Source of the DNA: Eledone cirrhosa
Taxonomy: Eukaryota
Assembly: GCA_964016885.1 (NCBI GenBank)
Contig: OZ024744.1
Location: forward strand, 22,630,001 to 22,694,000
Direction of reading: 5' to 3'
DNA length: 64,000 nucleotides
This document shows, in pieces, positions 1-34,900 of the stretch. The position numbers and the translations under genes are program-made. The notes beneath the pieces are model-generated. The model had not been told where the DNA came from. It did not search any database and worked only from the letters and a program-made list of their open reading frames with translations. Numbering within the stretch: the stretch's first letter is position 1; every line of letters starts with the position of its first letter.

Positions 1-1530
1 CAGTAAGGTGCCGACCGCCTCGATTGCGGAGGCCGTCGACACCATTACTGTCACATCATCGGCGTAGGCTGACACTGCTTTCCGCAATCCCGGTTCCAAA
101 GGGATGCCCTGCAACAACTCCAACTTCCGCAGTAGTGGCTCGAGAGTCAACACATACAGAAGGGAGGAGAGAGGGCACCCTTGTCGGATGGACCGCGCGA
201 TTTTGAACGGCTCCGAGAGGTAGCCGTTCACCTTGACCCTAGAGCAGATGCGGCTGCTGTTCATAGCAGTGATCCAGCCCCTGAAAACGGGCCCGAAGCC
301 TGCCGCCGCTAGCACCGCATCCAGGTAACCATGGTCGACCCTATCGAACGCCTTAGATTGATCCAAGTTGATCAGAGCCCCACCAAAGCCGGGTTCGTTC
401 CCAACCCTCTCTATGATGTATCGCATGAGGTGGAGGTTGTCATGGATGGACCTGGACGGGATAGCGCATGTCTGCGCATCTCCCACCAGGTTGCCCACGA
501 CAAGCGCCAACCTCTTTGCTAGCACCTTGGCCAAAATCTGTAACTCTGTATTTAGCAGAGTTATGGGCCTGAAGTTACTTATTTCGTCCCCCTTGTTCTC
601 GTCCTTCCTCACTAGCGTGACTACGCCCTTGGTCACAGTACAGGGAATTCTCCCGTTCTGTTGCCAGTTGCAGTAGACCGCCTCGAGGAGATCGGGGAAC
701 AAGTCCGGCATAGCTAGATATAATTCGTAAGGAAGTCCATCGAGACCCGGGGATTTGCTTTTGCCGCATTGGCCCAGCACGTCCTCTATCTCAGCGGCCG
801 AAATCGGCTCCTCGCAAGACTTCGCCTCCCTGTCCGAGAGGCGCGGCAGGCCGTCGAGGTATGGACCGAAGTCCACGTTTCCAACCGGCTCCCCGCCCCT
901 CCCGAACAGTCGGGCAAAGTGCCTTTGAAAGGCCTCACACATCTGCTTAGGCTCAAGAATCGCCCGTCCATCCAGGTCTCGCAAAGACCGGATGGTGGAT
1001 TTAGTTCCACTGTTGGCCTCTGTCACGCGGGCCCAGCTAACAGCTTTGGCCCCCTCGTTCCCTAGAGCACGTATTTTACTTCGGACAACGCAGCCTTCGT
1101 GCTTCGCGTCGAAAAACTGGCTCAAAGCCGTTCTCGACGCTAGCACTCTGGCCACGTCGCCGCTTCTAATTGCCTCTTCTACTCTATCTATTAGCTCCCT
1201 TTCCTTCCTATTCCTATCCGCAGCTAGCACCTTACTAAATTCAATCGAGACTACTCTAATCTCTCTCTTTAGAGATACCCACCACCTGCTGTTGACGATC
1301 GCTCCAGTCAACCGTTCCTTAACTAACGTACTAATCCGATTCCTGTAGGCTCTACTTGCCGGCAAGGACAAGTTGAGCTTCCAGTAACCGGGGCCCTGTC
1401 TATGCGTTCTATCAAGGTTGACCATGCAGGTCACCAACTTGTGGTCTGAATAGCCAACCATGAGCATTTCTGGACAACTTAAAAAGTCCCTGTCCTTATT
1501 TCTAACTAAAAATTTATCTAGGTACGATCT
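1..1530 (-). mobile_element. L1/Tx1-clade non-LTR retrotransposon ORF2 fragment (end of APE endonuclease plus reverse transcriptase), disrupted and 5'-truncated; continues past window start
   Basis: Manual minus-strand translation gives the endonuclease C-terminus RSYLDKFLV...GYSDHKLV...GPGYWKLN (~1530-1375). RT motifs follow in order: KSPGLDGLPYE (~760-725), NFRPITLLNTELQILAKVLAKRL, LINLDQSKAFDRVDH (~375-330), SIRQGCPLSSLLYVLTLEP (~195-140) and VSAYADDVT (~75-50). No long ORF is present in the track, so the frame is broken. Confidence 0.93.
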
Positions 1531-1534
1531 AATA

Positions 1535-1822
1535 GTTGGTATGACAGGCCTTGACTATTGGAGTTGACTAGAAAAGCTCAAACTTTATTCACTCCAACGT
1601 CACCATAGCGCTACATTATCTGCATCATGTGGAAAATATTCCATCAGCTTTGCCCAAATGTTGTTGGCATCACCTTTAATGTACACCCAAGGCTTGGGCC
1701 CCGTGCTTATCCGCCCACAACAAAATTCGCATCTCATAACAACAATACGGCACAATTAGTACCCTCAATTGGCCCTGCTCTCTTTAACATTACACCAAAA
1801 CACATTAAAATAGAAGCAGACC
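1535..1822 (+). mobile_element. CR1/L2-group LINE ORF2 C-terminal fragment, degenerate
   Basis: Plus-strand translation GMTGLDYWS*LEKLKLYSLQR..ERYIICIMWKI...SIGPALFNITPKHIK matches the 'L.Y..RL..L.L.SL..RR.R ... G..LFN.LP' pattern of CR1-group C-termini. It has one stop and one frameshift, and is cut by the (ACT)n repeat. Confidence 0.7.
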
Positions 1823-1823
1823 T

Positions 1824-2038
1824 TACTACTACTACTACTACTACCACAACAACTACTACTATTACCACAACTACTACTACTATTACCACAACTACTACTA
1901 TTGCTACCACTACTACTAACACTACTACTACCACGACTACGACTACTACCACCGCTACCACCACTACTACTACTACTTCTATCACAACTACTACTAGTGC
2001 TACCACTACTACTACTAGCGCCACCACCATCACCACCA
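1824..2038. repeat. Imperfect (ACT)n/(ACC)n trinucleotide microsatellite
   Basis: Directly visible; produces the poly-T, poly-V and poly-S spurious ORFs. Confidence 0.97.
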
Positions 2039-2789
2039 AAACCTTGCAGTCCAAATAGAGGGTTCATGGGTGTTTTAATGATAGTGGCCCCAGGCGTTAA
2101 TCCAAGAGCTGAACCATTAACTCACCTTATCCACTGATGTAACAAATATTCTATGTAGATACGATCTGGGTGACTCGGTGAGATTTGTTTACGTCCACTA
2201 TAACACATTTGCTATACCAGTTTATACCTGTCAGGTAGTTACATCACTTTCACTGCTTTTCACCTCCTGTGCCATTCAGTTGCAACACTTACCCAGGGAG
2301 ACCGTCCTTTACACAAACTCCAAACCTTTCCTAAACAAATCTATCCCTCCGATGATTTGATCTAGTAAGCACCAGTGATACCGGAGATTTCCGGGACGCA
2401 CGCTCGAGCGCTTCTCCTTAATGCCTAAAAGTTCTAGGAACTATTTGCTAGCCAGTGTGTTTTATACATTTAGAATGTGGTCTCTAAAAGATGATGTCAC
2501 AGACCCGGTAAATTATGTAGCTAATTCGAATGAGTTTGCAACAAAATATTGAACACAAATCTGAAATACAACAATATTACAAATTCACTAATTTATACAG
2601 GATACATAAATTATTACTTAAGCAATTAAGTTGTACAAGTTAAATATTCTCTCCTGATATATAACCCTGAAAGGATAAAGGATAAAGATCCCATAACTCC
2701 TTGTGGAGTCCTAGAGGCACTGTGTCAAACGGCGTGTCTAAGGCACTTTTAAATCTGGTGGAGCCTAATCCTTTCCAGGTTTGAACACA

Positions 2790-2877
2790 ACCGATTTTTT
2801 TTTCTATAGAGGAAGAATCGACCCCAGCAGTAGACTGGTACGTTTTTTATCGACATCGAAAAGATGAAAGGCAAAGT
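2790..2877 (-). mobile_element. SINE fragment with Nin/Deu-like central domain
   Basis: Reverse complement reads ACTTTGCCTTTCATCTTTTCGATGTCGATAAAAAACGTACCAGT, homologous to the copies at 4040-4425. Confidence 0.7.
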
Positions 2878-3274
2878 ATATGGTTGCTGTTGTTATTCTA
2901 TTCATGTGCTCTGTTCAACTTTGGTTTTCTTAATTCTATCTCAGTTGCTTCCCTGGTTTGTCTACCTGTTGAGTCATTTCTTTATTTAGATATTAGTTTA
3001 ATTTCTATTTGTAACCGGTTTAGAAAGTTTAATTTGGTTTAATGAGGGTAATTAGCAGTACGGTACCTGTAAGTTATTAGAAATAATTTGATTTGTTTAA
3101 CTGATCTTATTTATGAGAAAAATAATAGTTATGTTCTTGACATAAGAAAACATTACAGCAATACAATGGAAGGAAACATAATAATATCACTGATGATGTT
3201 ACAGGTGTGGGACGAAGAACTCTGAAAATCTATATTTATATCTATATTTTTAACTGTCTGCCAATCCAACGCCC

Positions 3275-3325
3275 CGGGCTAGTACTTTACTTTATCCACC
3301 CCAAAAGGATAAAACGCAAAATTAA
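3275..3325 (-). mobile_element. Very degenerate fragment of the same SINE domain
   Basis: CTAGTACTTTACTTTATCCACCCCAAAAGGATAAAACGCAAA resembles the reverse complement of TTTGCCTTTCATCCTTxCGGGGTCGATAAAATAAAGTACCAG. Confidence 0.45.
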
Positions 3326-3436
3326 AACATCCATAATAATATATACTAAACAAAGAGTACCTTACAATACTCTACATACGACCAAATTCGAGAACCTCAG
3401 ACAAATATGAAGTACGTCTGCCTATTTATAATTGCC

Positions 3437-3740
3437 TTCTTCTTCTTCTTTGCCCACTTATTTCTGAGAGAGTCATGGGGGAAGAGTCCTCAAACACTCC
3501 CTCCAGTAGGTCCTGTCAGAAGCAATCGTTTCCAACTGATCCGACTGGTTCCCTAAGTGAGACCAGTCAAGCTCATGGATGTTATCCAACCATCTTGTTC
3601 GGGGTCTATCCTTGGGTCTCCTGCAGGCTGGTTTTGCTCGTAAAATCTGTCCATCGATTCCTTCCTGAGACATTCTAACCACATGCCCATAGTATCGGAG
3701 CTGTGATTTCTCAATTCGGGGAAGTAGCGGCTCTACCTGG
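3437..3740 (-). mobile_element. RTE-clade LINE 3' end fragment with (GAA)n tail
   Basis: ORF 3473..3784 contains QLRYYGHVVRM...RRPKDRPRTRWLDNI, the RTE C-terminal R[WY]xGHxxR / GRPxxxW motif. (CTT)n at 3437-3449 marks the 3' tail. Confidence 0.85.
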
Positions 3741-4039
3741 GGTGACTCTCTGATCTCCATTTTTGTTCCTAGAATTAATTTCATTTTATTGTCTGTTATA
3801 CATAAACATATTATGTCAACTATATTTTACAGAAGTTATACAATGGTGGAAACATCACGATCAAAACTGCAAAGTCATTTTCGCGGACAATGGCCAGTGA
3901 CATTGGCGACTATGGTGGAGCTCTTAAATGTAAAAAGTAAAGAACTGGAACAAATACCGTACAAGAATTTCCTTCCATACTCTAAAGATTCTGCTAATTG
4001 TCTGATTTATTGTATTTTGCCATGACTTTACATTTACGT

Positions 4040-4260
4040 GGCGGTGGGTTGGCAGTAATCAGGAGGGCGCCCGACAACAGGCTTTGTGACATAGAGTTAT
4101 GGCCTTTTATCTTCTGACTTCAAATTCCGCCGAGGTTAACTTTGTCATTAATCCTTACAGGGTCGATAAAATAAAGTACCAGTAATGTACTGCGGTTGAT
4201 TTAATCTACTTAACCCTCCGCCCAAATTATTGGTCATGTTCCTAAATCAGAAACCATTAT
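4040..4260 (+). mobile_element. tRNA-derived SINE with Nin/Deu-like domain, near full length
   Basis: Head GGCGGTGGGTTGGCAG, B-box-like TTCAAATTCCGCC, then GAGGTTAACTTTGTCATTAATCCTTACAGGGTCGATAAAATAAAGTACCAGT. Confidence 0.75.
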
Positions 4261-4273
4261 ATATAAGCCTCCT

Positions 4274-4425
4274 CAGTTCAAATCCCGCCGAGGTTAACTT
4301 TGCCTTTCATCCTTACGGGGTCGATAAAATAAAGTACCAGTAATACACTGGAGTTGATTTAATTGCTCCCAACCCCACCTCAAAGAACAAATCGTTAACC
4401 TTGTGCCTAAATAAAAAACATTATT
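4274..4425 (+). mobile_element. Second, 5'-truncated tandem copy of the same SINE
   Basis: GTTCAAATCCCGCCGAGGTTAACTTTGCCTTTCATCCTTACGGGGTCGATAAAATAAAGTACCAGTAA aligns with 4118-4185. Confidence 0.78.
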
Positions 4426-4649
4426 TTCCCATTTACCGGAGTTTTTCATTGGCTTAATAGACCAAACATATATGTTTGTTATATCTTAATCCCTGTACAA
4501 TATTAGATAAACTTTATATCAAAGAATCCACGTGGTTATTTACAGCAAACTAAGAAAGAAAAAAAGTTGTATTTACAAGAACCAAGTGATTATCATTGTT
4601 TCTAAGTGGGATAAGTTTTATGTGCGTTCTTTTAATGGTCTACTCCGTG

Positions 4650-4820
4650 TGAATGCAGAGTTGAACGGATAAGATGTTCGCTTTGCAATCATGAGGACCC
4701 GGTTTCGATCCCATTGAATGACATAATACTTATATATCTTTAGGTCGACGTAGCTTCAGGTTGACACAAGCATTTTCACTGAAATTGAGTAGACGGAAAC
4801 ATTGCTGAAGCCTGTCGGAT
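4650..4820 (+). mobile_element. tRNA-derived SINE of a second family, degenerate
   Basis: tRNA-like head with B-box CCCGGTTTCGATCCC (~4698-4712), followed by GTAGACGGAAAC...GAAGCCTGTCG, which I recall from octopus SINE 3' regions (not verified by search). Confidence 0.55.
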
Positions 4821-5439
4821 GGGCTGAGTCTGTAATTCAAAAATTCAGCATTGTTACATACTGTTTCAGGTTCATTCAGCTTCGTTATAGCATTTAAGAT
4901 ACACGTGTCTGATGATGGATATTTAACCAATTACGTGATAATTCGAGGGTTGAATGTTCAATTGACTACAAAACTAGATGATCATTGTCGAAACTGACGG
5001 AGGATCCTTCACGCACGTGCGTAAGTTTGTGTGTTTGAGTGTAGGCACTTTGTATTTTTAACTGGCTACATTTTAAGTTGGTATGTATTCATAATATTTT
5101 AATGGCTATTTCATTCATTTAAAATGGATTCATTCCAACTCACCACAAATTAAAATAAATAATAATAAAGATAAAAATAAAAATAAAGACAAAAAAAAAT
5201 ATCGTCAATTATTTTTTTATCACCCGTTTGAAAATGTTCTTCTAGTAGAAATGTTTAGCGAATACCGAAGACCGAAGCTCCTACGACCGACCTTAACAAC
5301 AAACCTTATGTCAATGTATCAATCTTACCATTCCTCAAGCACAAACACCCCGCCGATATTTTCTCTTTTATCCCTTCCCCTATTAAAACATTACCCATCC
5401 TTCTTTCTTCCTTTTCTATCAGGGAGCGTGTGTATGTGT

Positions 5440-5545
5440 GTGTGGAGAGAGGGAGAGAGAGCAGCAGCAGCAGCAGCAGCAGCAGCACAGCAATAAACAT
5501 TAATCACGGGATATTCCTTTTCTAGCAGAGAGAGAGAGAGAGCAA
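5440..5545. repeat. (GA)n and (CAG)n microsatellites within a short local duplication
   Basis: (CAG)n at ~5461-5490 and (GA)n at ~5527-5541. CAATAAACATTAATCACGGGATATT occurs at both 5491 and 5551. Confidence 0.9.
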
Positions 5546-6412
5546 CATATCAATAAACATTAATCACGGGATATTGTTTGACACGGACAACAAGCTAGGC
5601 AATTTACTGCAATAATCTGCAACTGAAATTGTCAACAGCACAAGCTGTTAACACCGGCTCGCTGTCAGCACCGCAGTCAACTCAACAAACAGTCACCACC
5701 AGAACAACCACATACGAGGCGGGGGGAGGGGACATTGCGAATAGATTACTTCTACAAACAATCAAAGCAAACATAAATAAATAATTAAATAAGTAAATAA
5801 AATAATTATATAAATAAATAAATAAAATATATCATAAAATAAAATAAAATAAAATAAAAGTTTAAGACCGCAATTTGTTAATACCAGAAACAATCGAGTG
5901 TATAAATACCGAACTCTACTAATAATTGGTTTGAAATGTAACTTATTGTAGAAGTTTTACGATAAACATGTAATTTTTAGCATCGTTGTGAAAATAAACC
6001 AAATTCTTACACCACAGAATTTTAGTTGATCTCTCTACAAGGGCAGAAGATGGAGAATCGTCATGACAAGTTTCTAGATTTATTATATCTCCATCAGAGA
6101 AATATATACATATGAACTATCCACTGGGATATTAGTAGTTTTTAGCTAGCTATTTATAATGAATAAAACTATCAATCGTCTAAACGGTGCATTCTCTGAT
6201 AACATGGTTTACTTAATTCAGTACGATGCCTTACACAGTTTGTTTTTTTTTGTTTTTTTTTAGTTTTTGATGGAATATAAGTTACACCTTAGAAATATAT
6301 ATTTAATCTTGAAAATATATAATTTATATATAGTAAAGTAGTAACATGATTACATGAAGGCTTTTTTATATCTCCGTGGGCATAAAAACTGAAATCAATC
6401 TGAGTAGTTTAT

Positions 6413-6500
6413 AGTCTAGTCCGGAGGTTCTCAAACTTTTGGGGCCACCCGCCCCTGCAGCCACGTAATACCCTCAGCGCCCCCACCCCTATTTCTAGAG
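6413..6500 (+). mobile_element. hAT-Charlie-like non-autonomous DNA transposon end, remnant
   Basis: GTCTAGTC (NTCTAGNN-type target) followed by CGGAGGTTCTCAAACTTTTGGGGCC, resembling the CAGxGGTTCTCAAACT TIR class. No matching opposite TIR is seen. Confidence 0.45.
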
Positions 6501-6853
6501 AGACCTACCGACATGCAAATTGTAAATAATATATAAAAAGGAAAATCGTTAATTTATATATAATAAATAATATAATATATACTATGTATAAATATTATAT
6601 TTATTATATTATTTTATTATATCTATATATAACATGTATCATTTGATATTTGTTATTATATTATATCATCTCTATCGCCCTCTTAGGCCGCAGCGCCGCC
6701 TGATACTTCTCAATATATATATATTTATTAAAATAACAGATTACAGTTTAAGCAAAGAATCGCTGCTTTCATCCTTAACGGGATTTTCTGAAACAATGGA
6801 TATATATCATAAATCATGTCCTTAGAATTATTAGATAAAATATATACCATTTC

Positions 6854-7565
6854 CATCGTGAACGGTTGCCACATATATATCTGTGACTTTATGTATATGT
6901 AAATCTTTATATTTAATAATCTCCCGTTGGGTTGAGATGCAATTGGGCGATATTGTGCTGCGCTTTCTAGCAACCAGCCTACTCGCCGTAAGCAACTAAT
7001 CACATTCTTTCTAACTTGACCACTGCCACGTCACGATTCTTAGCCATTTTTAAAATCTATTTCTGGCGCGATCGTTTTGGAAAAGTAACTGTCCTATTGA
7101 GTTTGTCTCCTGATGAGTTCGATATTCGAGATTTATCCTTAATAGGATATCTCAAAATACGAACGAAACCATGGTAGAGATGTAATTACGGTATGTACAC
7201 GTTTCTTCTAACTTTAAATTTATACCTAATTGTATATGGTTGACGGTATATTTAGTCAATTTCTACATGCTGTTGAAATGTTGGGTAAATACTCTATTGT
7301 GGTTAACCGCGAAGAGGCCACTTTCGGTTATTTATAAAATATTTCTTCATAGGAGCCTTTATTCTTATAGCCTGGTCTAATTGATTTTTTATATGCTTAA
7401 TTATGCTAATTGGGAGAGGAAATTATATATATGTTATCTAATAATTCTAAGGACATGATTTATGATATATTGCTCTGATTATTTAATTTATTAATTCTTC
7501 ATTGAGCCACATCGTGAACGGTTGCCACATATATATCTGTGACTTTATGTATATGTAAATCTTTA

Positions 7566-7571
<6 letters not shown>
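6854..7571 (+). mobile_element. Hammerhead-bearing non-coding unit A (retrozyme or Penelope pLTR-like), 656-bp period with 62-bp terminal direct repeats
   Basis: Identical CATCGTGAACGGTTGCCACAT...AAATCTTTATATTTA at 6854-6915 and 7510-7571, with a hammerhead motif at 7104-7182 and no meaningful ORF. Confidence 0.65.
7104..7182 (+). ncRNA. Type I hammerhead ribozyme with minimal helix III and long helix II
   Basis: TGTCTC-CTGATGA-GTTCG...CGAAC-GAAA-CCATGG-TA-GAGATG. Helix I pairs TGTCTC with GAGATG (two G-U). The core CUGAUGA and GAAA are intact. Helix II is the 48-nt hairpin at 7117-7164. Helix III is the palindrome ACCATGGT. The GUA cleavage triplet ends at 7176. Confidence 0.85.

Positions 7572-7650
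<79 letters not shown>
7571..7650. repeat. Perfect (TA)n microsatellite of about 40 units
   Basis: Directly visible. Confidence 0.98.
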
Positions 7651-7655
<5 letters not shown>

Positions 7656-7664
7656 TATTTATAG

Positions 7665-8158
7665 GTACATACATATATGTGTACAGACGTACAGTAGTAT
7701 GTATATATATGCATACATGCACACATATATATATGTACGTATGGGTTTACCGAACATTTATTTCCATGATCGGTTTGTTTGTAAACAAACAACCCGAATT
7801 ACGCCGTACAGTGCTCGGCAACCATCGGCGCCCTTTTGTTCAATACTGACACAGGAACGATGTACTAGTTTCATGCTTATTAGCTATCATCAGCATCGTA
7901 TACCTTTCTGTCAGATGATTGAAAGTATATACTTTCCTTATGCATATTAACGACTGAGCAGCCTAATTTTCATATCGAGTGAGTAAGTCGGCCGGGCGCA
8001 CAGAAAACGATAAATGGAAAAGAATGAAACGAAATTTCATTTCTCACTCTTGGTACGGCTGATACCTAAATATAAGTACGTATACGTACATACATATATG
8101 TGTACAGACGTACAGTAGTATGTATATATATATATATATACATACATGTACACATATA
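7665..8158 (-). mobile_element. Hammerhead-bearing non-coding unit B (retrozyme-like), 421-bp period with terminal direct repeats
   Basis: GTACATACATATATGTGTACAGACGTACAGTAGTATGTATATATAT begins at both 7665 and 8086. A minus-strand hammerhead motif lies at 7857-7899. Confidence 0.6.
7857..7899 (-). ncRNA. Minimal type I hammerhead ribozyme
   Basis: Minus strand reads ACGATG-CTGATGA-TAGCTAATAAGCAT-GAAA-CTAG-TA-CATCGT. It has a perfect 6-bp helix I, an intact core, palindromic ACTAGT helix III and a GUA triplet. Helix II is short (GCT/AGC) with a non-canonical closing pair. Confidence 0.78.
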
Positions 8159-8508
8159 CACATATACACGAGACGTCCTACACGAGTGAAAGTATAAGGA
8201 AAAAAGATGAAGTCGAAAATGCAACTGGAGTCTTTTTAAGAATATTTATTTGGTTCCTTCTCCGCTATGTACTGGGCAAGCTCGTCAACATTATAAGATG
8301 TCTCACGCAGCAAATCCGAAGACAGAGTGTTTGCGTCTTCCCGGTTTGTTGAAGGTAGGCCATACACCGCCAACGCACTACCGCCCATATCGAGAACAGT
8401 ATCTTCGATTTCAAGTAGCGCCCTGTTGTAAATGAGGTCACTGTATCCGACCTCCATCGATGGGTTTAGCAACAGAGCGTGATGCAGGAAATCTTCAGAC
8501 ATGTAATC

Positions 8509-9880
8509 TTAGTAGCTAAGCCATAAAGAGGCCTGATCACCCAAGTCGCACCATAGGAGTAGAATAACGAAAAGCGATCTTAGTCTTTTAGGAGATTTCA
8601 ACAAAACGCTCTCTGCCATAGTGGCGCCCCATTGTAAATCATCCTCCAAAAGGCCACACCTAAAGCAGGCTTCCCCGAAAGTATCACATAATTCACCGTC
8701 AACAGTTCTTATGTCTCGAAAGCTTTGTGGGCCAAAAACCTCATGGAGGAGAAGGTGTAGGTGAAAACACTCATGCTGGTTGGGAGGTACAGTGTACACT
8801 CTTCCTAGACAACTGTCAAACTTGACACCAGGATGTCCTTCAACATCCTGACCTGACTTCCTACGCACCAAAGTGTTGTTTGACCACACGTTGTAGGACG
8901 GGACCTGAAGATATGAAAGTGTTTTTGCAAATGTGTCAAGTTTGCAAAGCGTAAAAAAACCAGTCAAAGTTGTTTCTTTTGGATTGGCCGCCAAATGAAC
9001 AGCAGTCTGTTCAGTAAAGTAAGCCCGCTGGCCGTTTTCCAAATGAACAGCTAGTTGTATGATGGCGGGGTGCCTTTGGTGAAGTGGAAACCCGAATATC
9101 CGCGAAAAAGCTTCACCACTGCTGATATATCGACCTGCCAAGTGCTCCGAGACCTCGTCCCTGCTATTGTGGTTTTGAAGGCCGAACATGGCAGCGTCAG
9201 AACCCTTGTTAACATATTTACATATGTACTTTATTGACTTCACTAAATGACAGAAGTCCACATTTATATGAGCGTTGACAGTTTTCATCAGAAATGGACA
9301 GTACGGGGCCACCCACCTATTATCAACTTGATGACCCCGTAACGTCATAGTGAATCCACCGTTCTCAGGCCGCCTTCGTCTGTACAGTGGGTATCCGTCG
9401 CCACCGGTCTGGGTCTCTTCAACAAACCTATTTGGGTATCGTTTAGTGCACACATGGTCCTTGTGGCATGAGGAGACCTCTTGAAAACCAGGACCGCATG
9501 GACCGTGCACCATGTGTGCCTTCACAATGTCGTACAGCTGTCGGTCAACAACGGGGTCCGGTATTTCCGCTGCGATGACGTCATCTAGAACTGTAGGGTC
9601 TATCTTGGTGACCAACCAAACCAAAATGTGCGCGTGTGGAAACCCTCTCTTCTGCCACTCAACAGTATACATGTGGCACCTAACAGGCCCGAAAACCTTC
9701 CCTTTTTTATTAGATCAATTAGCTTAGCCACCTTCTGCCTGAAAACCATGGCAATAATATCATGCCGATGGCAATACTGCTGCCCTGGAATAAGTTCCCG
9801 CGAAACATCAACCCACTTGGGGTTACACGTAAACGTGATGAATCGGGGCGCCCATAATGCCGAACGAACGTCATAGCGTC
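8509..9880 (-). pseudogene. Helitron Rep (HUH endonuclease) domain fragment
   Basis: Motif 1 FITFTCNPKW (~9843-9814), motif 2 VEWQKRGFPHAHIL, MVHGPCG, CTKRYP, GYPLYRRR, DNRWVAPY, AHINV, motif 3 KYICKYVNKGSD, LAVHLENGQ and GRVYTV. Confidence 0.95.
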
Positions 9881-9898
9881 CTGTGTTCGCTCGTGCAT

Positions 9899-10541
9899 TT
9901 ACCGCCCCCCACCCCCCGTATAGGTTGAGGGGAGAATGAACATTTTGACGATGTTCCGGGGGTCAGTGTCATTCCTGATGTCTTCACGCAAATGGATGTA
10001 GGAGTCTGAGCGCAGCTGCTTCTGATTCAATTTTATGAAGCACAGTCTCTCCGACTCCATCTTTGCAGCCATGTCAACTGCAAACTGGTGAAACAGTTCC
10101 CGTGACCTGTGCAGGGGGCTAAAATCATTAGGCCTCGTCATGAAGCGATATGAGTACAAAGCCATACATGAAACAGTTTTAGATGTCGCAGCAGTGGACT
10201 CGTTTGGTTTGCGTTGAAGATTGCCGAAATGGTACCCGTCTTCTCCGTATGCAAAAAGAAGGGGATACTGCAGGGCGTCGTATGAACGATGCGTCTCATT
10301 AATACGTCGAAGACCACTGTCACGGCTTAGAAGAACTATGTCTCGCTTATTGTGCTGTTCATCATGGATAACTACGGCCACTTCATTGCAGGAAGGAACG
10401 TTATAACGGCGTGCGTGCTCCCCAGAAGGTCTTTTGTCAGCATCGATGACAATGGTGAAGTTTAGTGAAGGGTTTGTTTCCAATGCGTATTTGAAACTGC
10501 GAATATAACTGTTGTGCTCATGAAGCATGTTTTGAAGACCG
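9899..10541 (-). pseudogene. Helitron RepHel N-terminal conserved region fragment
   Basis: HARRYNVPSCNEVA, YDALQYPLLFAYGEDGY, LFHQFAVD, ESERLCFIKLNQKQLR and ILPSTYTGG. The frame is lost at a G-run near 9905-9917. Confidence 0.92.
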
Positions 10542-10882
10542 AGCAGCAGTAGCAGCAGCATTTCTAGCTAGGCGAGTCGACCTTTGTTCCGGGCCCTCTG
10601 AAGCCCCGGAAGCAGCAGTAGAAGCGTTTCTTCTTTGGAATGACGTATCGCCCGCTCTGAATCGCACATCGCAGCACGTCTCGAGGCGTCGTATGAAGCC
10701 ATCTTGGCTAGGCGTGCGGTGCGTTGTTGAAAACTTTCAGCAGCTCTGAATTCCGCTGAACGTAAGGCGCTCTGTGAAAGTCTTAAAGCAGTTTCCTCGG
10801 GGGACTCGTTTGCTCTAGTCGCTCTCTGCGCCGCCGCTGACGCGGTATGGCGACCGAAGCGACTTCTCTGTTTAGGTGGCAT
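10542..10882 (-). pseudogene. Helitron extreme N-terminus with four 23-aa STPR-like repeats
   Basis: MPPKQRSR..., then RANESPEETALRLSQSALRSAEF / RAAESFQQRTARLAKMASYDASR / RAAMCDSERAIRHSK(frameshift)RNASTAAS / GASEGPEQRSTRLARNAAATAA. A 69-bp DNA period is visible (AGCAGCAGTAG at 10542 and 10611). Confidence 0.7.
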
Positions 10883-11449
10883 TTTATGTGAAAAAGAAAG
10901 GGTGAAAGTTACTTCTACAGCAAAATTGCCTTTGAAAGTATAAGGCTGAAAACTGTCGGCGTTCCGCAGGGGGAAAAAATGGGAGAACGAACGGTAAATA
11001 AATAACTCACAGTTTGTTGAAAGCGCGCTTCTGTCAGCAATTTGAAGTTGTTTGGCCAAAAATCCCTATTTGTTTTTTTTTCACTCAATAAACATGTAAA
11101 TATGTTATACACAAAATGTAATTGTGTGTGAGTTGGATGATAGATGTTTTAAAAAAAGAGTTTAAGCGTATATAAGAGAAGGTTGCAGCATGTATTTTTT
11201 TTTTTCGATTTTTAAGGGGAGTAGAGAGAGGTATTCAGATTGTATTAGAGGGTAAAAGCGTCATGTATTTAGTTTTATCGATTATTTCCGTAATTGTGGG
11301 TGATTTTAAAATAAATAAATAGTCGTTGACCTAAGTTAGACCATTTACAACATTCCTACAGACTTTGAGTCGAATTGGTTTGAAATTGTGCAAATGTAAA
11401 TAATTTTTTTTTTAATGTTAACTTTAAGGTAACACATTTTCCATTTGTG

Positions 11450-11820
11450 TATGTTTATATATATATACATACAGAAGTAAGTGTTGGTGTGAGTGTGGGT
11501 GTGTGTGCGTGTATGTATGTATTATGTGTGTCCCTCCCCCTCTCTCTCTATGTGTCGCAAATTTCGTGACCTCGTAGAAATTATGTTATGCTAATTTGAA
11601 CATGTTGTGTCATGATGAATGTCCATGCATATATAGTCATACACACACTTACACAAGCACAAACACAACACAAACAGGCGACACACACATATATACATAC
11701 ACACACGCACTCTCACACAGATACATGCACACATATACCCCCACACGCACACATACACACACATATACAAGCACGCGTACACATACACAGTCTATAATCA
11801 TATAAATAGATTTACACACA
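11450..11820. repeat. Degenerate (TG)n / (CA)n low-complexity tracts
   Basis: TG-rich at 11450-11530 and CA-rich at 11640-11790; these generate the spurious H/T and V/C ORFs. Confidence 0.9.
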
Positions 11821-11995
11821 TTGAAAGGTAATGACGGATGCAGTGGAAAGAAAAGGGATAAAACACAGTCATAATAGCCAGCGTGTGTTTGTCGTTTACG
11901 GCTTGGTGGAACCCATCCCTTTCCAGATCAAAACACAGCCATATTTATATATTTGTTTTTTTTATGATGTTTAACAGAAACCCGTTCCCATAAAC

Positions 11996-12640
11996 TTATT
12001 CTTCTTCTTAGGGTCGTAGGGGCAGAGTCCTCAAACACACGTTCCGTCGGGTCATGTTTAGAAGCAACCGTCTCTAATTTATCCAACTGGATCCCCAAGT
12101 GAGACCAGCTGAGCTAATGGATTTTATCCAACCACCTTGCTCCAGGTCTATCCTTGGGTATCCTACCTGTTTCGCCCGTAAAATCTGTCCAGCGATTCTT
12201 CCCTGAGAGATTCTAACCACATTGCCATAGTATAAGAGCTGTGATCTCTCAATTCGGAGAAGGAGCGGCTGTATTACTGCGCCAGCTTTTTCAATTCTGG
12301 TACTTAATTCAGCCTCCTGCCTTCCATCACTCGTGAAGACGGCCCCGAGATACTTGAACATCTCCACCTGCTTCAGTGGAACTCCATTTACATGTAGCGT
12401 GCACTACACAGGCTTCCTTGAGAGGACGAGTGTCTCAGTTTTCTTAACACTGATTTTCATCCCAGCCGTGCGAGTACAAGTCGAATATCATCTTCTGTCG
12501 AGTTAAGTAACACCATGTCGACTGCAAATTCCAGCCGACTGATTTAACACCCGCTAGTCATGATACCACTTCCAACCCAGCTGTGCATATCAATCCTGTT
12601 CATGAAAATAATGAAAAGGAGAGTTGACAGTATGCAATAT
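11996..12640 (-). mobile_element. RTE-clade LINE fragment (RT C-terminal half to 3' end), same family as 3437-3740
   Basis: Minus-strand CILSTLLFIIFMNRID, degenerate catalytic FAVDMVLL, GMKISVKKTETLVL, LKQVEMFKYLGAVF and QLLYYGNVVRI. A (CTT)n tail lies at ~12000, and the nucleotide sequence aligns with 3478-3735. Confidence 0.88.
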
Positions 12641-12864
12641 TAACTGTGATGAAAAAAACTAAACAATCTAGCCGCCATAGTACTCACTGAATAACGTTAC
12701 GTGGCGGAGATTTGACTACTGTGTCGTGATCGGCATCTAGCCGTATACAGGCTGCCTTCATTGACACCTAGAAAATCTTGTGGAGGTGAACGGCGATTAT
12801 TCGATCTGAGCTTGACTGTTGCTGCTTCTCTGCACTTCTAACTATTGTACATAACAACACTTTG

Positions 12865-13160
12865 TTTCTAATGGAGGTTACACTACCTTTCTGAGAAAGA
12901 CTAAATATTCCTTGTCAGGCATATCCTACTCTTAATATCCCAAAAGTAATTGCACGACTGATTGAACGACGTAGGTTTGCTGGTCATTGCTTCCGAACCA
13001 AATTTGAGATGGTATCAGACCACTTGTTCTGGAAGATCTCCTTTATCCGAAAGCTCAGATAACAGGATACCATAGCAACAGACACTGGAATTGACAAGGA
13101 AGAACTACAAACGTTCTTGAGGAAACTGAGACTGCTGGCGTGATGTTGTTTGCTGTCTCA
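12865..13160 (+). mobile_element. RTE-like LINE 3' fragment of a different family
   Basis: Plus-strand GGYTTFLRK..., IERRRFAGHCFRTKFEMVSDHLFW (from ~12961) and DTGIDKEELQTF...CWRDVV, across frameshifts. Confidence 0.7.
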
Positions 13161-13337
13161 CCTAAGAGACACAGGAATTCTCATGGAAGTCCTATAGACC
13201 TTGATAGGAACTGAGACTCTTAGCGACAAGTTGTGATTGCTGACTCGTCTAGGGTGATAGAATAGATGCCAGAAAGTTCAAATAGCAGAATACAATAGTA
13301 AGAGACACCGGAATTGACAGGGAAGATCTATAGCCAT

Positions 13338-14570
13338 TGTGTGGTGTGGTGTAGTGTGGAGTAGTGTATGGTGTGGTGTGGAGTGGTGTATGGTGTGTGC
13401 TGTGTAGTGTGGAGTAGTGTATGGTGTGGTGTGGAGTGGTGTATGGTGTGTGCTGTGTAGTGTGGTGTGGTCTGCTGTAGTGTAGTGTGTGGTGTGTGGT
13501 ATATGATGTGGTGTGGTGTGTGGTGTATGGTGTGGTGTGTGGTGTAGTGTGGTGTGTTGTGTGGTGTGGTGTAGTGTGGTGTGATGTGTGGTGTAGTGTG
13601 GTGTGGTGTGTGGTGTGTGGTATGGTGTGGTGTAGTGTTGTGTGTGATGTGGTGTGTTGTGTGGGTGTGGTGTAGTGTGGTGTGGTGTGTGTTGTGTCGT
13701 CGTGTGGTGTGGGGTGGTGTGGGTGGTGTGGGGTGTGTAGTATGGTGTGTTGTGTGGTGTGGTGTGGTGTGTGGTGTGTGGTGTGGTGTAGTGTAGTGTG
13801 GTATGTGATGTGGTGTGGTGTGTGGTGTTGTGTATGGTGTGGTGTGTGATGTGATGTGTGGTGTGTGGTGTGGTGTGGCGTGGTGTGTGGAGTGGTGTGG
13901 TGTGTGGAGTGTGGTGTGGTGTGTGGTGTGTTGTGTGATGTGTGGTGTGGGGTGTGTTGTGTGGAATTGGGTGTAGTGTGGTGGGGTTGGTGTGGTTTGG
14001 TGTAATGTAGTGTAGTGTGGTGTAGTGTGGTGTAATGGGGTGTAGTGTGGTGTGATGTAGTGTGGTGTGGTGTAGTGTAGTATAGTGTGTTGTGGTGTGG
14101 CGTAGTGTAGTGTAGCGTAGTGTAGTGTGGTGTAGTGGGGTGTGGTGTAGTGTAGTGTAGTATAGTGTGATGTGGTGTCGTGTGCGTGGTGTTAGGTGTG
14201 GTGTCGTGTGCGTGGTGTTAGGTGTGGTGTAGTGTGATGTGGGGTGGGGTGTGATGTGATGAGGTGTGGTGTGGTGTGTTGCAGTGTGGTGTAGTCTGGT
14301 GTAGTCTGGTGTAGTGTGGTGTAGTGTGGTGTAGTGTGGTGTGGGGTGTGGTGTGGTGTGGTGTAGTGTATTGCGGCGTGGTGTGGTGTGGTGTAGTGTG
14401 GTGTAGTGTGGTATAGTGTGGTGTGGTGTGGTGTAGTGTGGTGTAGTGTGGTGTAGTGTAGTGTAGTGTGATTTGGTTTGGTGCAGTGTTGTGTGTTGTA
14501 GTGTAGTGTGGTGTGGTGTAGTATAGTGAGGAATGGTGTGGTGTGTATGTTGTGTATGTATGTTTGTGTG
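13338..14570. repeat. G/T-rich degenerate pentamer repeat (GTGTG/GTAGT)n of about 1.2 kb
   Basis: Directly visible; accounts for the 440-aa His/Thr ORF 13278..14600. Confidence 0.97.
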
Positions 14571-17500
14571 TATATCCAGCGAAATGAACCTGCTAGCCAT
14601 ACTCTAAATTCCGGCAGTCTAAAAGAGACTGCCCACCTTCGACAAGCCTAACAGAGACTGTCCACTTTCAACAAACCTAACGGAGACTGCCCACTTTCGA
14701 CGTACTTAACAGAGACTGCCCAGCTTCGTCAAGCCAATCAGAGACTGCCCTCTTTCGACAAACCTAACAGAAACTCCCCACCTTCAACAAGCCTAACAGA
14801 GACTTCCAACTTTCGACAGAACTAAAAGAGACTGCCCACTTTCGACATACCTAACAGAGACTGCCCACCTTTGACAAACGTAACAGAGACTGGCCACCGT
14901 CGACAAACTCAACAGAGACTGCCCACAGTCGACAGGCCTAACAGAGACTGACCACTTTCGACAAATCTTACAGAGACAGCCCACCTATGGCAAACTAAAC
15001 AGGGACTAACTACCTTCGACAAGGCTAGCAATGATTGCCCACCTTCGAAAGCCTAACAGAGACTGCCCACATTTGACAAACGTAACAGATAAAGCCACCT
15101 TCGACAAACTTAAAACAGACTGCCCAACGTCGACGAGCCTAACAGAAACTGCCCCCCCCCCCCCTCTTCTACAAGGCTAATACTGACTGCCCACCTCGAC
15201 AGGGCTAACAGAGGCTCCCAACCTACGAGAAGCCTAACAGAGTCTGCCCACCTTCGAAAAACCTAACAGAGACAGCCCACTTTCGACAAGCCGAACAGAG
15301 ACTGCCCACCTTAGACAAACCTAACAGATACTGCCCACTTTCGACAAGCCTAACAGAGATTTCCCGCCGTTGACAATTCTAAGAGAGACTGCCCATCTTC
15401 GACAAACCTAACAGATACTGCTCACCTTCGACAAGCCTAACAGAGACTTCCCACCTTCGATGAGTCTAACAGAGACTGCCCATTTTCACAAACTTAACAG
15501 AGACTGCCGACCTACGACAAACCTAACAGAGACTGCCCACCTTCGACAAGCCTAACAGAGATTGCCCGCCTGCGATAAGACTAACAGAGACTGTCCAGCT
15601 TCGACAAGCCTAGCAGAGACTGCACACCTTGGACAGGCCTAACAGAGACTGCCCACTTTCGACAAACATAACAGAGACTGCCCACCGTCGACAAACCTAA
15701 CAGAGACTGCCCAACTTCGACAAGTCTAACAGTGACTGCCCACCTTCGACAAACCTAACAGAAACTGCCAACTTTCGACAAACCTGACGGAGACTGTCCA
15801 CCTTCGACAAGCCTAACAGAGAGCCCGCCTTCGACAAGTCTAACAGAGACTACCCACCTTCGACAAGCCTAACAGGGACTGACCACCTTCGACAAACCTA
15901 ACAGAGACTGCCCAACTTTGACAACTCTAACAGAGACTGCCAACCTTCGACAGACCTTACAGAGACTGCCTATCTTCAATAAACCTAACAGAGACTGACC
16001 AACTTAGAAAGGTTTAACGGAGACTGCCCACCTTCGACAAACCTGACAGAGACTGCCCAACTTCGACAAACCTGACGAAGACTGCCAACCTTCGACAAGC
16101 CTGACAGAGACAGCCCACCTACAACAAGTCTAACAGAGACTGTCTATCTCTACACACCTAACAGAGACTGCCCATCTTCGACAAGCATAACAGAGACTAC
16201 CCAGCTTCGAAAAACCTAACAGAGACTGCCCATTTTCGAACAACCTAAATGAGAGTGCCGACTTTTGACAAACCTATCAGAGACTGCCCACCTTCAACAA
16301 ACCTAACAGATACTGCCAACATTCGACAAACCTAAGTGAGACTGCCCACCTTCGACAAGCCTAACAGAGACTGCCCGAGTTAGACAAGTCTAACAGCGAC
16401 AGCCCACCTTCGACAAACCTAACAGGGACTCCACACTTTCGACCAACCTAACTGAGAGTGCCCATATTTGACAAACCTAACAGAGACTGCCCAACTTCAA
16501 AAAGCCTAGGAGAGATTGCCCACCTTCGATAAGCCTAATAAAGACTGCCCACTTTCGACAAACCTGACGGAGACTGTCCACCTTCGACAAGTCTAACAGC
16601 GACTGCGCACCTTCGACAAGCCTAACAGAGACTGCCCACGTTTGACAAACCTAACAGTGACTGCCCACCGTCGTGAAACCTGACGGAGAATGCCCAACTC
16701 CGACAAGGCTATCAGAGACTCCCCAACTTCGACAAGTCTAACATGACTGTCCACCTTCGACAAGCCTAACAGAGACTACCCACCTTCGACAAACCTAACA
16801 GAGACTGCCAACCTTCAAGAAACCTAACAGCGGCTGCCCACATTCGAAAAACCTAAAAGCGACTGCCCACCTTCGACAATTCTAATAGAGACTGCCCACC
16901 TTCGACAGAGCTAACAGAGACTGCCCACCTTCGACAAGCCTAACAGATACTGCCAACCTTCAACAAATCTAAGAGAGACTGCCCACCCGCGACTAACATA
17001 ACAGAGACTGCCCATGTTCGGCAAAAATAACAGAGTATCCCCATCTTCAACAAACCTAACAAAGACTGCCCATTTTCGACAAACCTAACAGAGACTTCCC
17101 ATCTTCGACAAGCCTAATAGAGACTCGCCGCCTTCGACAAGTCTAACAGAGACTGCCTACTTGCGACAAACCTAACAGAGACTGCCCACCTTCGACAAAT
17201 CTAACAGAGACTGCCCACTTTCGACAAAACTAACAGAGACTGCCAAACTTCGACAAACCTAACAGAGACTTCTCATCATCGACAAACCTAACAGAAACTG
17301 CCGACCTTCGATAAGCCTAACTGAGACTGCCCACCTTCGACAAGCATATCAGAGTCTGCTCAACTTCGACAAGTCTAACAGAGGCTGCCCAACTTCGACA
17401 AGCCTAACAGAGACTGCCCACCTTCAACAAACCTAACTGAGACTGACCAGCTTAGAAAAGTCTAACGAAGACTGACAACTTTCGACCAACCTAAGTGAGA

Positions 17501-31900: not shown

Positions 31901-34900
31901 ACATTCGACAAATCTCCCAGAGATTGCCCAACTTCGACAAACCTAACGAAGACAGCCCACCTTCGACAAGCCTAACAGAGTCTTCCCACATTCGACAACT
32001 CTATCTGAGACTGCCCACCTTCGACAAGTCTAACAGAGACTGCCCATATATGACAAACCTAACAGACACTGCCGACCTTCGACAAGTCTAACAGAGACTG
32101 CCCACCTTCGCTCAAATATAACACAGTCAGCCCACCTGCGACAAGCCTAACAGGGACTGCCAACAGGGACTACCCACCTTCAAAAAATCTAACAGAGACT
32201 GCCCACCTTCGACAAACCTAACAGAGACTACCGACCTTCCACAAACTTAACAGAGAATCCCCACCTTCGACAAACCTAACAGTGAGTGCCAATTTTCAAC
32301 AAGCCTAAGTGAGACTGCCAACATTTGACAATGCTAACAAGATTGCCCACCTTCGATAAGCCTAACAGTGATTGCCCAACTTCAACAAGTCTAACGGAGA
32401 CTGTCAATCTTAAAGAAGCCTAACAGAGACTGCCCATCTTTGACAAACATAACAGAGACGGCCCAACAGCGACAAACCTAACAGACTTCCCACCTTCGAC
32501 AAGACTAACAGAGACTGCCCTTCTTCCACAAGTCTAACATAGACTACCCACCTTAGACTAGCATAGCAGAGACTGCGCACCGTCGACTAACCTAACAGAG
32601 ACTGCCAACGTTCCACAAACCAAACAGAGACAGCCCACCTTCGACAAGCCTAACAGACACGGCCCACATTCGACAAGTCTAATAGAGACTGCCCACCTTC
32701 GACAAACATAACAGAGACTGCCCACATACGACAAACCTAACAGAGACTGCCCACCTTCGATAAGCCTAACAGTGACTGCCCAGATTCGACAAACTTAACA
32801 GAGACTGCCGACCTTCGACAAGTCTAACACTGACCGCCCACTTTCGCTCAAATCTAAAAGAGACTGCCCACCTTCGACAAGCCTAACAGAGACTGCCAAC
32901 ATTTGACAAGTCTAACTGAGACTGCCCACCTTCGATAAACCTAACAGTGACTGCCCATCATCGACAAATCTAACAGAGACTATCAATCTTAGACAGGCCT
33001 AACAGAGACTTCCCATCTTTGACAAACCTGACAGAGACTGCCGACATTCGACAAGCCTAATAGAGACTGCCCAGCTTCGACAAACCTAACAGAGACTTCC
33101 CAGCTTCGTCAAACCTAAGAGAGACTGCCCACCTTCGACAAGCCTATCAGTGACTATCAATCTTAGAGAAGCCTAACAGAGACTGCCCACCATTGACAAA
33201 CCTAACATAGACTGCCCACCTTCGACAAACCTAACAGAGACTGCCCACCTTTGACAAGCCTAAACGGGACTGCCCACATTCGACAAGTCTAACTGAGACT
33301 GCCCACCTTCAACAAGTCTAACAGAGACTGCCCACATACGACAAACCTAACAGATACTACCCACATTCGACAAGCCTAACAGCGACTGCCCACGTTCGGC
33401 AGACTTAACAGAGATTGCCCACCTTCGACAACTCTAACAGAGACTGCCCACCTTCGCTCAAATCTAACACTGACTGCACACCTTCGACAAGCCTAACAGA
33501 AAATGCCCACCTTCGACAAGTCTTACAGAGACTGCCCACATTCGACAAGCCTAATAGAGACTTCCCAGATTCGTCAAAGCTAACAGAGACTGCCCACCTT
33601 CGACAACTTTTACAGAGACTGCGCAGTTTCGACAAGTCTAACAGAGACTGCCCTATTTCGATAAGCCTAACAGAGACTGCCCACTTTCGACAAATCTACC
33701 AGCGATTGCCCAACTTCAACAAACCTAACATAGACAGCCCACCTTCGACAAGTCTAACAGAGACTACCCACATTTGAAAAGTCTAACAGAGTCTGCCCAA
33801 CTTCGACAAGTCTAACATAGACTACCTACCTTAGACTAGCCTAGAAGAGACTGCGCACCTTCGACTAACCTAACAGAGAATGCCCACCTTCGACAAGCCT
33901 AACAGAGACTCCCCACCTTCGATGAGCCTAACAGAGACTGCCGACCTTCGACAAGTCCAACAGAGACTGCCCACCTTCGGTAAAATCTAACACAGACTGC
34001 ACACATTCGACAAGCCGAACAGAGACTGCCCACCTTCGACAACTCTTACGGAGACTGCCCACTTTCGACAAACCTAACAGCGACAGCTCACCTTCGACAA
34101 GCCTACCAGAGACTGCCCTCATTCGACAAGTGTAAATTAGACTGCCCACCTTCGACAAGTCTAACAAAGACTGCCCATATATGACAAACCTAACAGAGAC
34201 TGCCCAACTTCGTCAAGCCTAACAGTGGCGTCCCACCTTCGACAAACTTACCTGAGACTGCCGACGTTCGAAAAGTCTAACAGAGACTGCCAACAATTGA
34301 CAAGTCTAACAGAGACTGCTTAGCTTCGATAAGCCTACCAGAGACTACTCAACTTCGACAAGTCTAACAGAGACTATCAACCTTAGGCAAGCCTAACAGA
34401 GACTACTCAACTTCGACAAGTCTAACGGAGACTATCTACCTTAGGCAAGCCTAACAGAGACTGCCCACCTTCGACATACCTAACAGAGACTACCGACCTT
34501 CGACAAATCTAACAGGGACTACCCTCCTTCAACATGTCTAACAGAGACTGCCCTACTTAAAAAAACCTAACAGAGACTGCCCACCTTCGACAAACCTAAC
34601 AGAGACTGCCCATATATGACAAACCTAACAGAGACTGCCCAACTTTGCTGAAATCTAACACATCTGCCCACCTTCTACAAGCCTAACAGAGACTGCCGAC
34701 CTTCGACAAGTCTAACAGAGACTGCCCACCTTCGATAAGCCTACCAGAGACTACTCAACTTCGACAGGTCTAACAGAGACTATCAATCTTAGGCAAGTAT
34801 AACAGAGACTGCCCACCTTCGACAAACCTAACACAGACTACCGACCTTCGACAAATCTAACAGGGAATACCCACCTTCAACAAGCCTAACAGAGACTGCC

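Follow-up and report, generated by a model that had tools for sequence, protein, structure and literature searches.

We identified a type I hammerhead motif with an unaltered core on the plus strand of a 64,000-nt stretch of octopus DNA (hereafter referred to as the window), where it lies at 7104-7182 within a non-coding repeat unit of 656 nt (Table 1); the motif is read from the sequence and its cleavage is a prediction. Its anatomy groups it with the palindromic Penelope-type hammerheads, elements already known from many animals, and the unit is probably a non-autonomous Penelope-like derivative of the non-LTR retrozyme type; cleavage by its ribozyme would be weak and would require either dimer formation or the help of protein. 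By analogy, the unit may work like a non-LTR retrozyme. Neither a new chemistry nor a new kind of element is implied by these results, in which the one measurable oddity is the length of helix II.

Table 1. Features of the hammerhead-bearing repeat unit and its insertion site (positions in the window)
Feature	Positions	Strand	Basis
Non-coding 656-nt repeat unit bearing the hammerhead	6854..7509	+	Repeat analysis, contigs, Pfam
62-nt direct repeat, 5' copy	6854..6915	+	100% identical to 7510-7571
62-nt direct repeat, 3' copy; opens a second unit and enters the TA tract	7510..7571	+	
(TA)n microsatellite, likely insertion target	7572..7651	.	Sequence, TRF
Inverted 53-nt copy of 7418-7470 (50/53 identical)	6802..6854	-	Repeat comparison
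Hammerhead helix I, 5' strand	7104..7109	+	Sequence, folds
Core CUGAUGA (C3-A9), unaltered	7110..7116	+	Sequence, scan
Helix II, 48-nt hairpin, 19 pairs in four stems, G10.1-C11.1 closure	7117..7164	+	Fold, z -4.24
Core GAAA (G12-A15.1)	7165..7168	+	Sequence
Palindromic helix III, 8-nt ACCATGGT	7168..7175	+	Own reverse complement
GUA triplet; predicted cut 3' of A7176	7174..7176	+	Hammerhead numbering
Helix I, 3' strand	7177..7182	+	Sequence, contigs

The core elements CUGANGA, GAAA and UH and helices I-III in type I order are all present in the motif. A sequence-only reading of this DNA had called the core intact (CTGATGA at 7110-7116, GAAA at 7165-7168, GTA at 7174-7176), helix II a 48-nt hairpin of stems around a TAAT loop, and helix III self-complementary; the letters bear out the first and third of these claims (7168-7175 is its own reverse complement), and the minimum-energy fold of helix II is identical to the one described. 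That reading had thus described the motif correctly and had overlooked the 656-nt repeat unit around it, while its label "hammerhead A" implied a second hammerhead, of which a type I descriptor run over the 64 kb on both strands found none. Helix I comprises 6 bp (four Watson-Crick and two G-U pairs between 7104-7109 and 7177-7182), and folds predict a bulged extension of its 5' strand to about 7096. Besides the GUA, the only UH site in the unit that pairs more than one helix III bp together with helix I is 6932 (6 + 3 pairs), about 180 nt upstream of the GUA site. Both ATGs in the motif (7113 and 7171) reach stops within nine codons. The palindrome region (7168-7174) includes ACCATGG, a strong start-codon context in animals, in a frame that ends after four codons. 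According to the available part of PMC1636495, GUA is a natural triplet that is cleaved more slowly than GUC. A rearranged, non-circularly permuted topology (Eckert et al. 2023; rearranged types in the available part of PMC10085705), recognized by a cleavage block within the helix II spacer or ahead of the GAAA block, was excluded, the site at 7126 giving five helix I pairs and one helix III pair.

We further examined the repeat unit and its insertion setting. At this locus it is present in 1.09 copies with one hammerhead, and the window copy therefore has no partner in cis; it is a solo monomer that probably stays silent in the absence of a partner in trans. Four frames of 61-100 aa lie within the unit or next to it, and none matched any Pfam family, no reverse transcriptase or GIY-YIG reading frame was found in or beside it, and its self-pairing is not strong (z -1.36). 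The inverted 53-nt copy adjoins the 5' end of the unit, with which it has one base in common, and terminates in a short AT run. At the other end lies the (TA)n tract of about 80 nt, where the TRF call (7546-7651) takes in the AT-rich end of the unit. The unit shows a partial tandem, an adjacent inverted piece, a microsatellite target and no clear target duplication, the pattern of Penelope-mobilised sequence; partial tandems, adjacent inverted 5'-truncated copies and microsatellite targets are given for Penelope-like insertions in the available part of PMC8557442. No tRNA genes were found in 1-15000.

Upstream of the unit lies a separate, short and far more abundant repeat (6712-6794), with a summed depth of up to 2.5 million in the public sequencing run X1; it also occurs in runs X4, X6 and X7. 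Its flanks vary on both sides and are TA-rich on the left, and it possibly represents the terminus of a different Penelope-type element beside which the unit inserted. Homology between 7471-7571 and 6712-6801 was rejected for lack of significance, with 217 and 516 of 1000 shuffles scoring equally well. The adjoining 6633-6711 is a further repeated stretch, found in X1 alone among these four runs. The window is repeat-rich elsewhere too: 8236-11065 (minus strand) holds the scattered pieces of a disrupted Helitron Rep/helicase gene (Pfam Helitron_like_N, STPRs), with best matches of its frame to Octopus sinensis (83%) and then O. bimaculoides (62%), which very probably makes the host an octopus. 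By eye, we take 1-1450, 3473-3826 and 11928-12620 (all minus strand) and 4040-4420 (plus strand) to be decayed non-LTR retrotransposon pieces and SINE-like repeats; Pfam gave no match for the two of these pieces searched. The remainder (14619-64000) is a 49-kb satellite with a 29-nt unit in about 1700 copies (75% matches), which shows hints of a longer period and identical 140-nt blocks at 32090 and 45363.

Relatives of the stretch were searched for in public sequencing runs, and parts of it were found in 8 of the 11 runs listed, from four studies. Contigs on 6600-7575 numbered 9240 in X1, 92 in X4, 3 in X6 and 11 in X7, counts that include many from the separate repeat at 6712-6794. Every bin of the unit was covered in X1 and X4, and summed depth over the hammerhead in X1 ran from 3,600 to 40,000 (5-38 for single listed contigs), sums that are not copy numbers. 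At least two organisms nevertheless carry the unit as a many-copy family. Viral contigs held no relatives of the unit, and the metagenome scan (blastn) gave 10 loci, none like it. One contig (X4 record 9) runs from 7390-7507 into 6873-7003 via a diverged 62-nt segment, which is a head-to-tail junction, and is too short to contain two hammerheads; two further junction rows (7527 to 6898 and 7527 to 6888) are ambiguous, since the 62-nt repeat may fit two places. The junction within 7428-7573 is contiguous in X7 record 25 (four differences, no gaps). An apparent opposite-strand joint (6847/7423) was set aside, being explained by the window's own inverted repeat.

These joints bear on an alternative in which no independent 656-nt unit exists: the stretch would be the pseudo-LTR end left by 5' truncation of an autonomous Penelope-like element, and the 62-nt repeat would have arisen by local duplication. 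Such an origin would fit the single hammerhead in the window, a tandem junction that is clear on one contig only, and the available part of PMC4209133, where most Penelope-type hammerheads are solo motifs in truncated copies. However, X4 record 9 passes the unit end and continues into 6916-7003 with a 656-nt period that cannot fit a reverse transcriptase, the 7428-7573 junction is uninterrupted in X7 record 25, and no coding remnant was detected (Pfam, four frames). We regard a truncated autonomous element as an unlikely source of the stretch.

The contigs also carry variants in the motif, as drawn from the 40 of 152 variant rows listed, among which none falls at a core position. The change 7182 G>A accounts for 90% of summed depth in X1, also occurs in X4 and X7, and converts a U-G pair of helix I to U-A, while 7162 A>G (77%) keeps the pair with 7119. 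In a 13-read loose-end consensus from X1 (agreement 0.67), position 7119 is C, so that the pair would become C-G, and the helix II tip differs while being of similar length. By 7125 T>C (99%) a pair is lost unless 7157 changes too. That the 7182 and 7162 variants keep their pairs is suggestive, and is not a covariation test.

Helix II stands out both for its stability and for its length. Its minimum-energy fold (-15.2 kcal/mol, z -4.24, equalled by none of 200 shuffles) consists of four stems and the TAAT loop, with 7117/7164 as the G10.1-C11.1 closing pair and a bulged A7122 after five pairs, and helix II is the most stable part of the motif in most folding contexts. Its 48 nt compare with at most 23 nt in 56 motifs counted by eye in the available part of PMC4209133, where the example descriptor admits a helix II of at most 24 nt (seven pairs and a 10-nt loop), a limit that would make longer arms hard to detect in the comparison set. 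The earlier claim of an unusually long helix II therefore stands in that the arm exceeds the published Penelope-type motifs, with the reservation that this set was gathered under a 24-nt limit. No arm of 48 nt was found in a literature search for long helix II. The entire motif is covered by X4 record 12 (24 differences, seven gaps), and all or nearly all of helix II by X4 record 11 and X1 record 5, so that the arm is bridged or nearly bridged in contigs from two organisms; none of the listed joints deletes helix II alone. These results suggest that the long helix II is a family trait and not an insertion in one copy. The middle stem of helix II (7128-7132 and 7149-7153) has the same letters as helix I (GAGAT with ATCTC or GTCTC), which may reflect the way the arm grew. 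Strand exchange between helix I and this look-alike stem was rejected, with a probability of at most 0.11 in seven contexts. In the microbial metagenome loci we observed hammerhead-like core words around a 30-41 nt hairpin at L005:3001-3042 (minus strand), L008:3001-3042, L003:1240-1283 and L009:3001-3053 (all plus strand). None of the Rfam hammerhead models matches these metagenome loci, and the layout is a weak type I in 2 of the 10 (L005 and L008, helix II of 30 nt) and a weak type III in one. The four loci are possibly unlisted hammerheads; given the weak layouts and absent Rfam matches, the metagenome loci were set aside as a precedent.

In another reading, cutting by the family hammerhead would now be dispensable, with the fold and its long helix II kept as a binding or folding element for a partner reverse transcriptase. 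Support comes from the prominence of helix II across folding contexts and from published assays: in the available part of PMC11167929, core mutants of the anole Poseidon show normal insertion in vitro and the cleavage site lacks RNA read ends, and eight of nine frog retrozyme dimers stayed uncut (bioRxiv 10.64898/2026.07.22.740005, available part). On the other side, the core, the G10.1-C11.1 pair, the GUA and the palindrome are all intact in the window copy, and the listed 40 of 152 variant rows leave the core untouched. We think it improbable that the motif persists for binding or folding alone.

The palindrome of helix III permits pairing in two ways. In the monomer, helix III has two pairs and a CAUG loop (predicted probability 0.0), and between two copies it has eight pairs. 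Co-folding two copies of 7090-7200 gave a predicted double hammerhead with pair probabilities of 0.92-1.0, in which the copies joined through a helix III of 8 bp, each formed its helix II, and helix I was formed between strands. With longer flanks (7060-7230) the hammerhead fold dropped to about 0.01 (helix I) in the monomer and 0.03 (helix III) in the dimer. The energy gain of the dimer (-10 to -12 kcal/mol) was discarded as evidence, since 20 control slices gained as much (-4.0 to -14.6 kcal/mol), and the co-fold geometry alone is therefore informative. The small palindromic helix III is thus predicted to be able to form a double hammerhead in short contexts only, and the proposal in the sequence-only reading that the palindrome enables dimers holds for 7090-7200, with the fold mostly lost once flanks are extended. 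The degree of surprise attached to the motif there is not supported, the palindrome itself being already the published consensus of Penelope-type motifs (PMC4209133, available part). The label "minimal" does not suit the motif either, which departs from the strict minimal Penelope-type form by a 6-nt helix III insert (CCAUGG) and by the missing extra base after A9.

It is also conceivable that the long helix II yields an active monomer, through stacking or through a new contact between A7122 and a bulge-extended helix I. In chrysoviruses, type I hammerheads whose helix II has 6 bp and which contain a bulged A cut fast without loop-loop contacts (PMC13725137), and folding models would allow the bulged extension of helix I. 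However, the chrysovirus motifs have a longer helix III, whereas that of the window monomer is reduced to two pairs around a palindromic tetraloop with a predicted probability of 0.0, and such a helix III form required dimers in axolotl (PMC7229834, available part), which makes an active monomer very improbable.

Detection of the motif depended on the search model. The type I descriptor gave one match in the 64 kb on both strands and none in 300 dinucleotide shuffles of 1-14600, the non-satellite part; because the descriptor was composed with the motif already known, this shuffle control is generous. With one mismatch allowed in CUGANGA, the same site alone was found in 1-14600. Rfam gave no match to 7104-7182 at the gathering threshold, and none of its hammerhead families matched at E values up to 10, a failure that the long helix II probably explains. 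The possibility that hammerhead words came together by chance in AT-rich repeat DNA, which the absent Rfam match and the post hoc tuning of the descriptor might favour, can practically be dismissed in view of the 300 negative shuffles, the hairpin z of -4.24, the correctly placed perfect palindrome and a retroelement setting where such motifs are expected.

For a non-autonomous Penelope-like derivative, the reading we prefer, the following cycle can be proposed. Tandem copies would give a transcript longer than one unit, and neighbouring hammerheads would pair via the palindrome into an 8-bp helix III with helix I strands swapped; the paired hammerheads would then cut slowly after the GUA, in dimers or aided by protein, which could free unit-length RNA. 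An autonomous Penelope-like element would supply the reverse transcriptase and GIY-YIG nuclease and nick (TA)n, and the reverse transcriptase would prime at an internal site of the RNA, its copy extending somewhat beyond one unit. In the dimer mode loop II would have no tertiary contact, leaving helix II free to lengthen: an arm of 19 pairs puts the apical loop beyond the canonical reach of loop I-loop II, so that it may have been able to grow, and its length would be a family trait requiring no new mechanism. As for the autonomous partner, the octopus Naiad consensus was unlike the unit by eye, and exact 11-13-mers were negative. A bolder version would make the unit the first known member of an abundant octopus retrozyme family, invisible to standard searches because its helix II has twice the length they allow, whose long arm is a conserved docking site through which the partner reverse transcriptase switches cleavage on and whose 656-nt RNA circles arise in cephalopod tissue and are possibly mobilised by Naiad; Naiads are reported to be without hammerheads (PMC8557442, available part), and we hold this version to be quite doubtful.

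Together, these findings would add octopus to the animals with hammerhead-bearing Penelope-type repeats. A literature search, with Repbase, Dfam and several supplements outside its scope, listed no report of a hammerhead in an octopus, and neither "ribozyme" nor "hammerhead" occurs in a 2026 annotation of octopus repeats (PMC13282606). Rfam and the published descriptors, as given in the available parts of their sources (helix II of at most 24 nt; spacer of 7-17 nt), are blind to this many-copy motif, and counts of such ribozymes are therefore low. The motif also offers a natural construct for probing the role of helix II in dimer-dependent or protein-assisted hammerheads.

We then compared the unit with known systems, each as described in the available part of its source. 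Naiad (Craig et al. 2021, PMC8557442) occurs in octopus, has (TA)n targets and forms tandem and inverted insertions, and the window unit is like it in its octopus host, (TA)n target and tandem plus inverted layout. An origin from the published octopus Naiad was rejected, as the 3' parts are unlike the unit by eye; eight of nine exact words of the unit were absent from the Naiad/Chlamys/Hydra consensus file, and the ninth matched a nematode element. The spacer in Craig et al. 2021 is 7-17 nt, and eight Naiad families have core halves 35-50 nt apart; the nematode long-spacer cases examined seem to be rearranged hammerheads, whereas the window motif is an ordinary type I. By eye, the 3' ends of nematode Naiad-2_Nbra, Naiad-3_Nbra and the preceding record (File S1 of PMC8557442) appear to be complete non-circularly permuted hammerheads, with a CUGAnGA block, a GUC cleavage block, a GAAA block and complementary strands for helices I, II and III. 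That paper reports no canonical hammerhead in them; if computed and confirmed, these hammerheads would qualify the claim that Naiads lack them, and retrotransposons would join the known carriers of the rearranged types of PMC10085705. The octopus Naiad 3' UTR (same file, by eye) shows blocks in the order GUA, GAAA, CUGAUGA, together with a helix I of 6 bp, helix III ACCAU/AUGGU pairs as in the window palindrome and no clear helix II.

The green anole element Poseidon (Frangieh et al. 2024, PMC11167929) nicks AT-rich DNA and primes internally in vitro; its hammerhead cleaves only with protein, and insertion in vitro is independent of cleavage. Likewise, the window unit has its hammerhead upstream of an internal 3' end and an AT-rich target. 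Poseidon is autonomous, however, and its reading frame begins within its hammerhead, whereas the 3' end of the window unit lies 395 nt past the cut site and the motif ATGs close within nine codons.

In metazoan non-LTR retrozymes, non-coding units that carry type I hammerheads are arranged in tandem (Cervera and de la Pena 2020, PMC7229834), and a dimer cleavage model is stated in the review PMC6765202. Li, Clavereau and Pollet 2026 (bioRxiv 10.64898/2026.07.22.740005) describe units of 51-972 bp, many solo monomers and kinship with pseudo-LTRs; one of nine retrozyme dimers tested there cleaved. The window unit resembles these elements in being non-coding, AT-rich, many-copy and equipped with one type I hammerhead; a head-to-tail form exists, 656 nt falls within 51-972 bp, and solo monomers are common among them. 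In contrast, 656 nt exceeds the circles of 170-400 nt demonstrated experimentally, the hammerhead is Penelope-type instead of canonical, and the unit is weakly self-paired, present in 1.09 units and known from DNA alone.

The closest anatomical match is with the hammerheads of Penelope pseudo-LTRs, which combine a small palindromic helix III with a longer helix II and show low activity, confined to dimers (Cervera and de la Pena 2014, PMC4209133). The window motif differs from these in standing without an attached reading frame. Like those of Aedes, Drosophila willistoni, Marsupenaeus and Saccoglossus (2), it is a type I with an intact core and G10.1-C11.1, with a short helix I, a palindromic helix III, a longer-than-canonical helix II and no standard loop I-loop II contact, and Saccoglossus (2) also shares with it the absence of an extra base after A9 and a GUA cleavage site.
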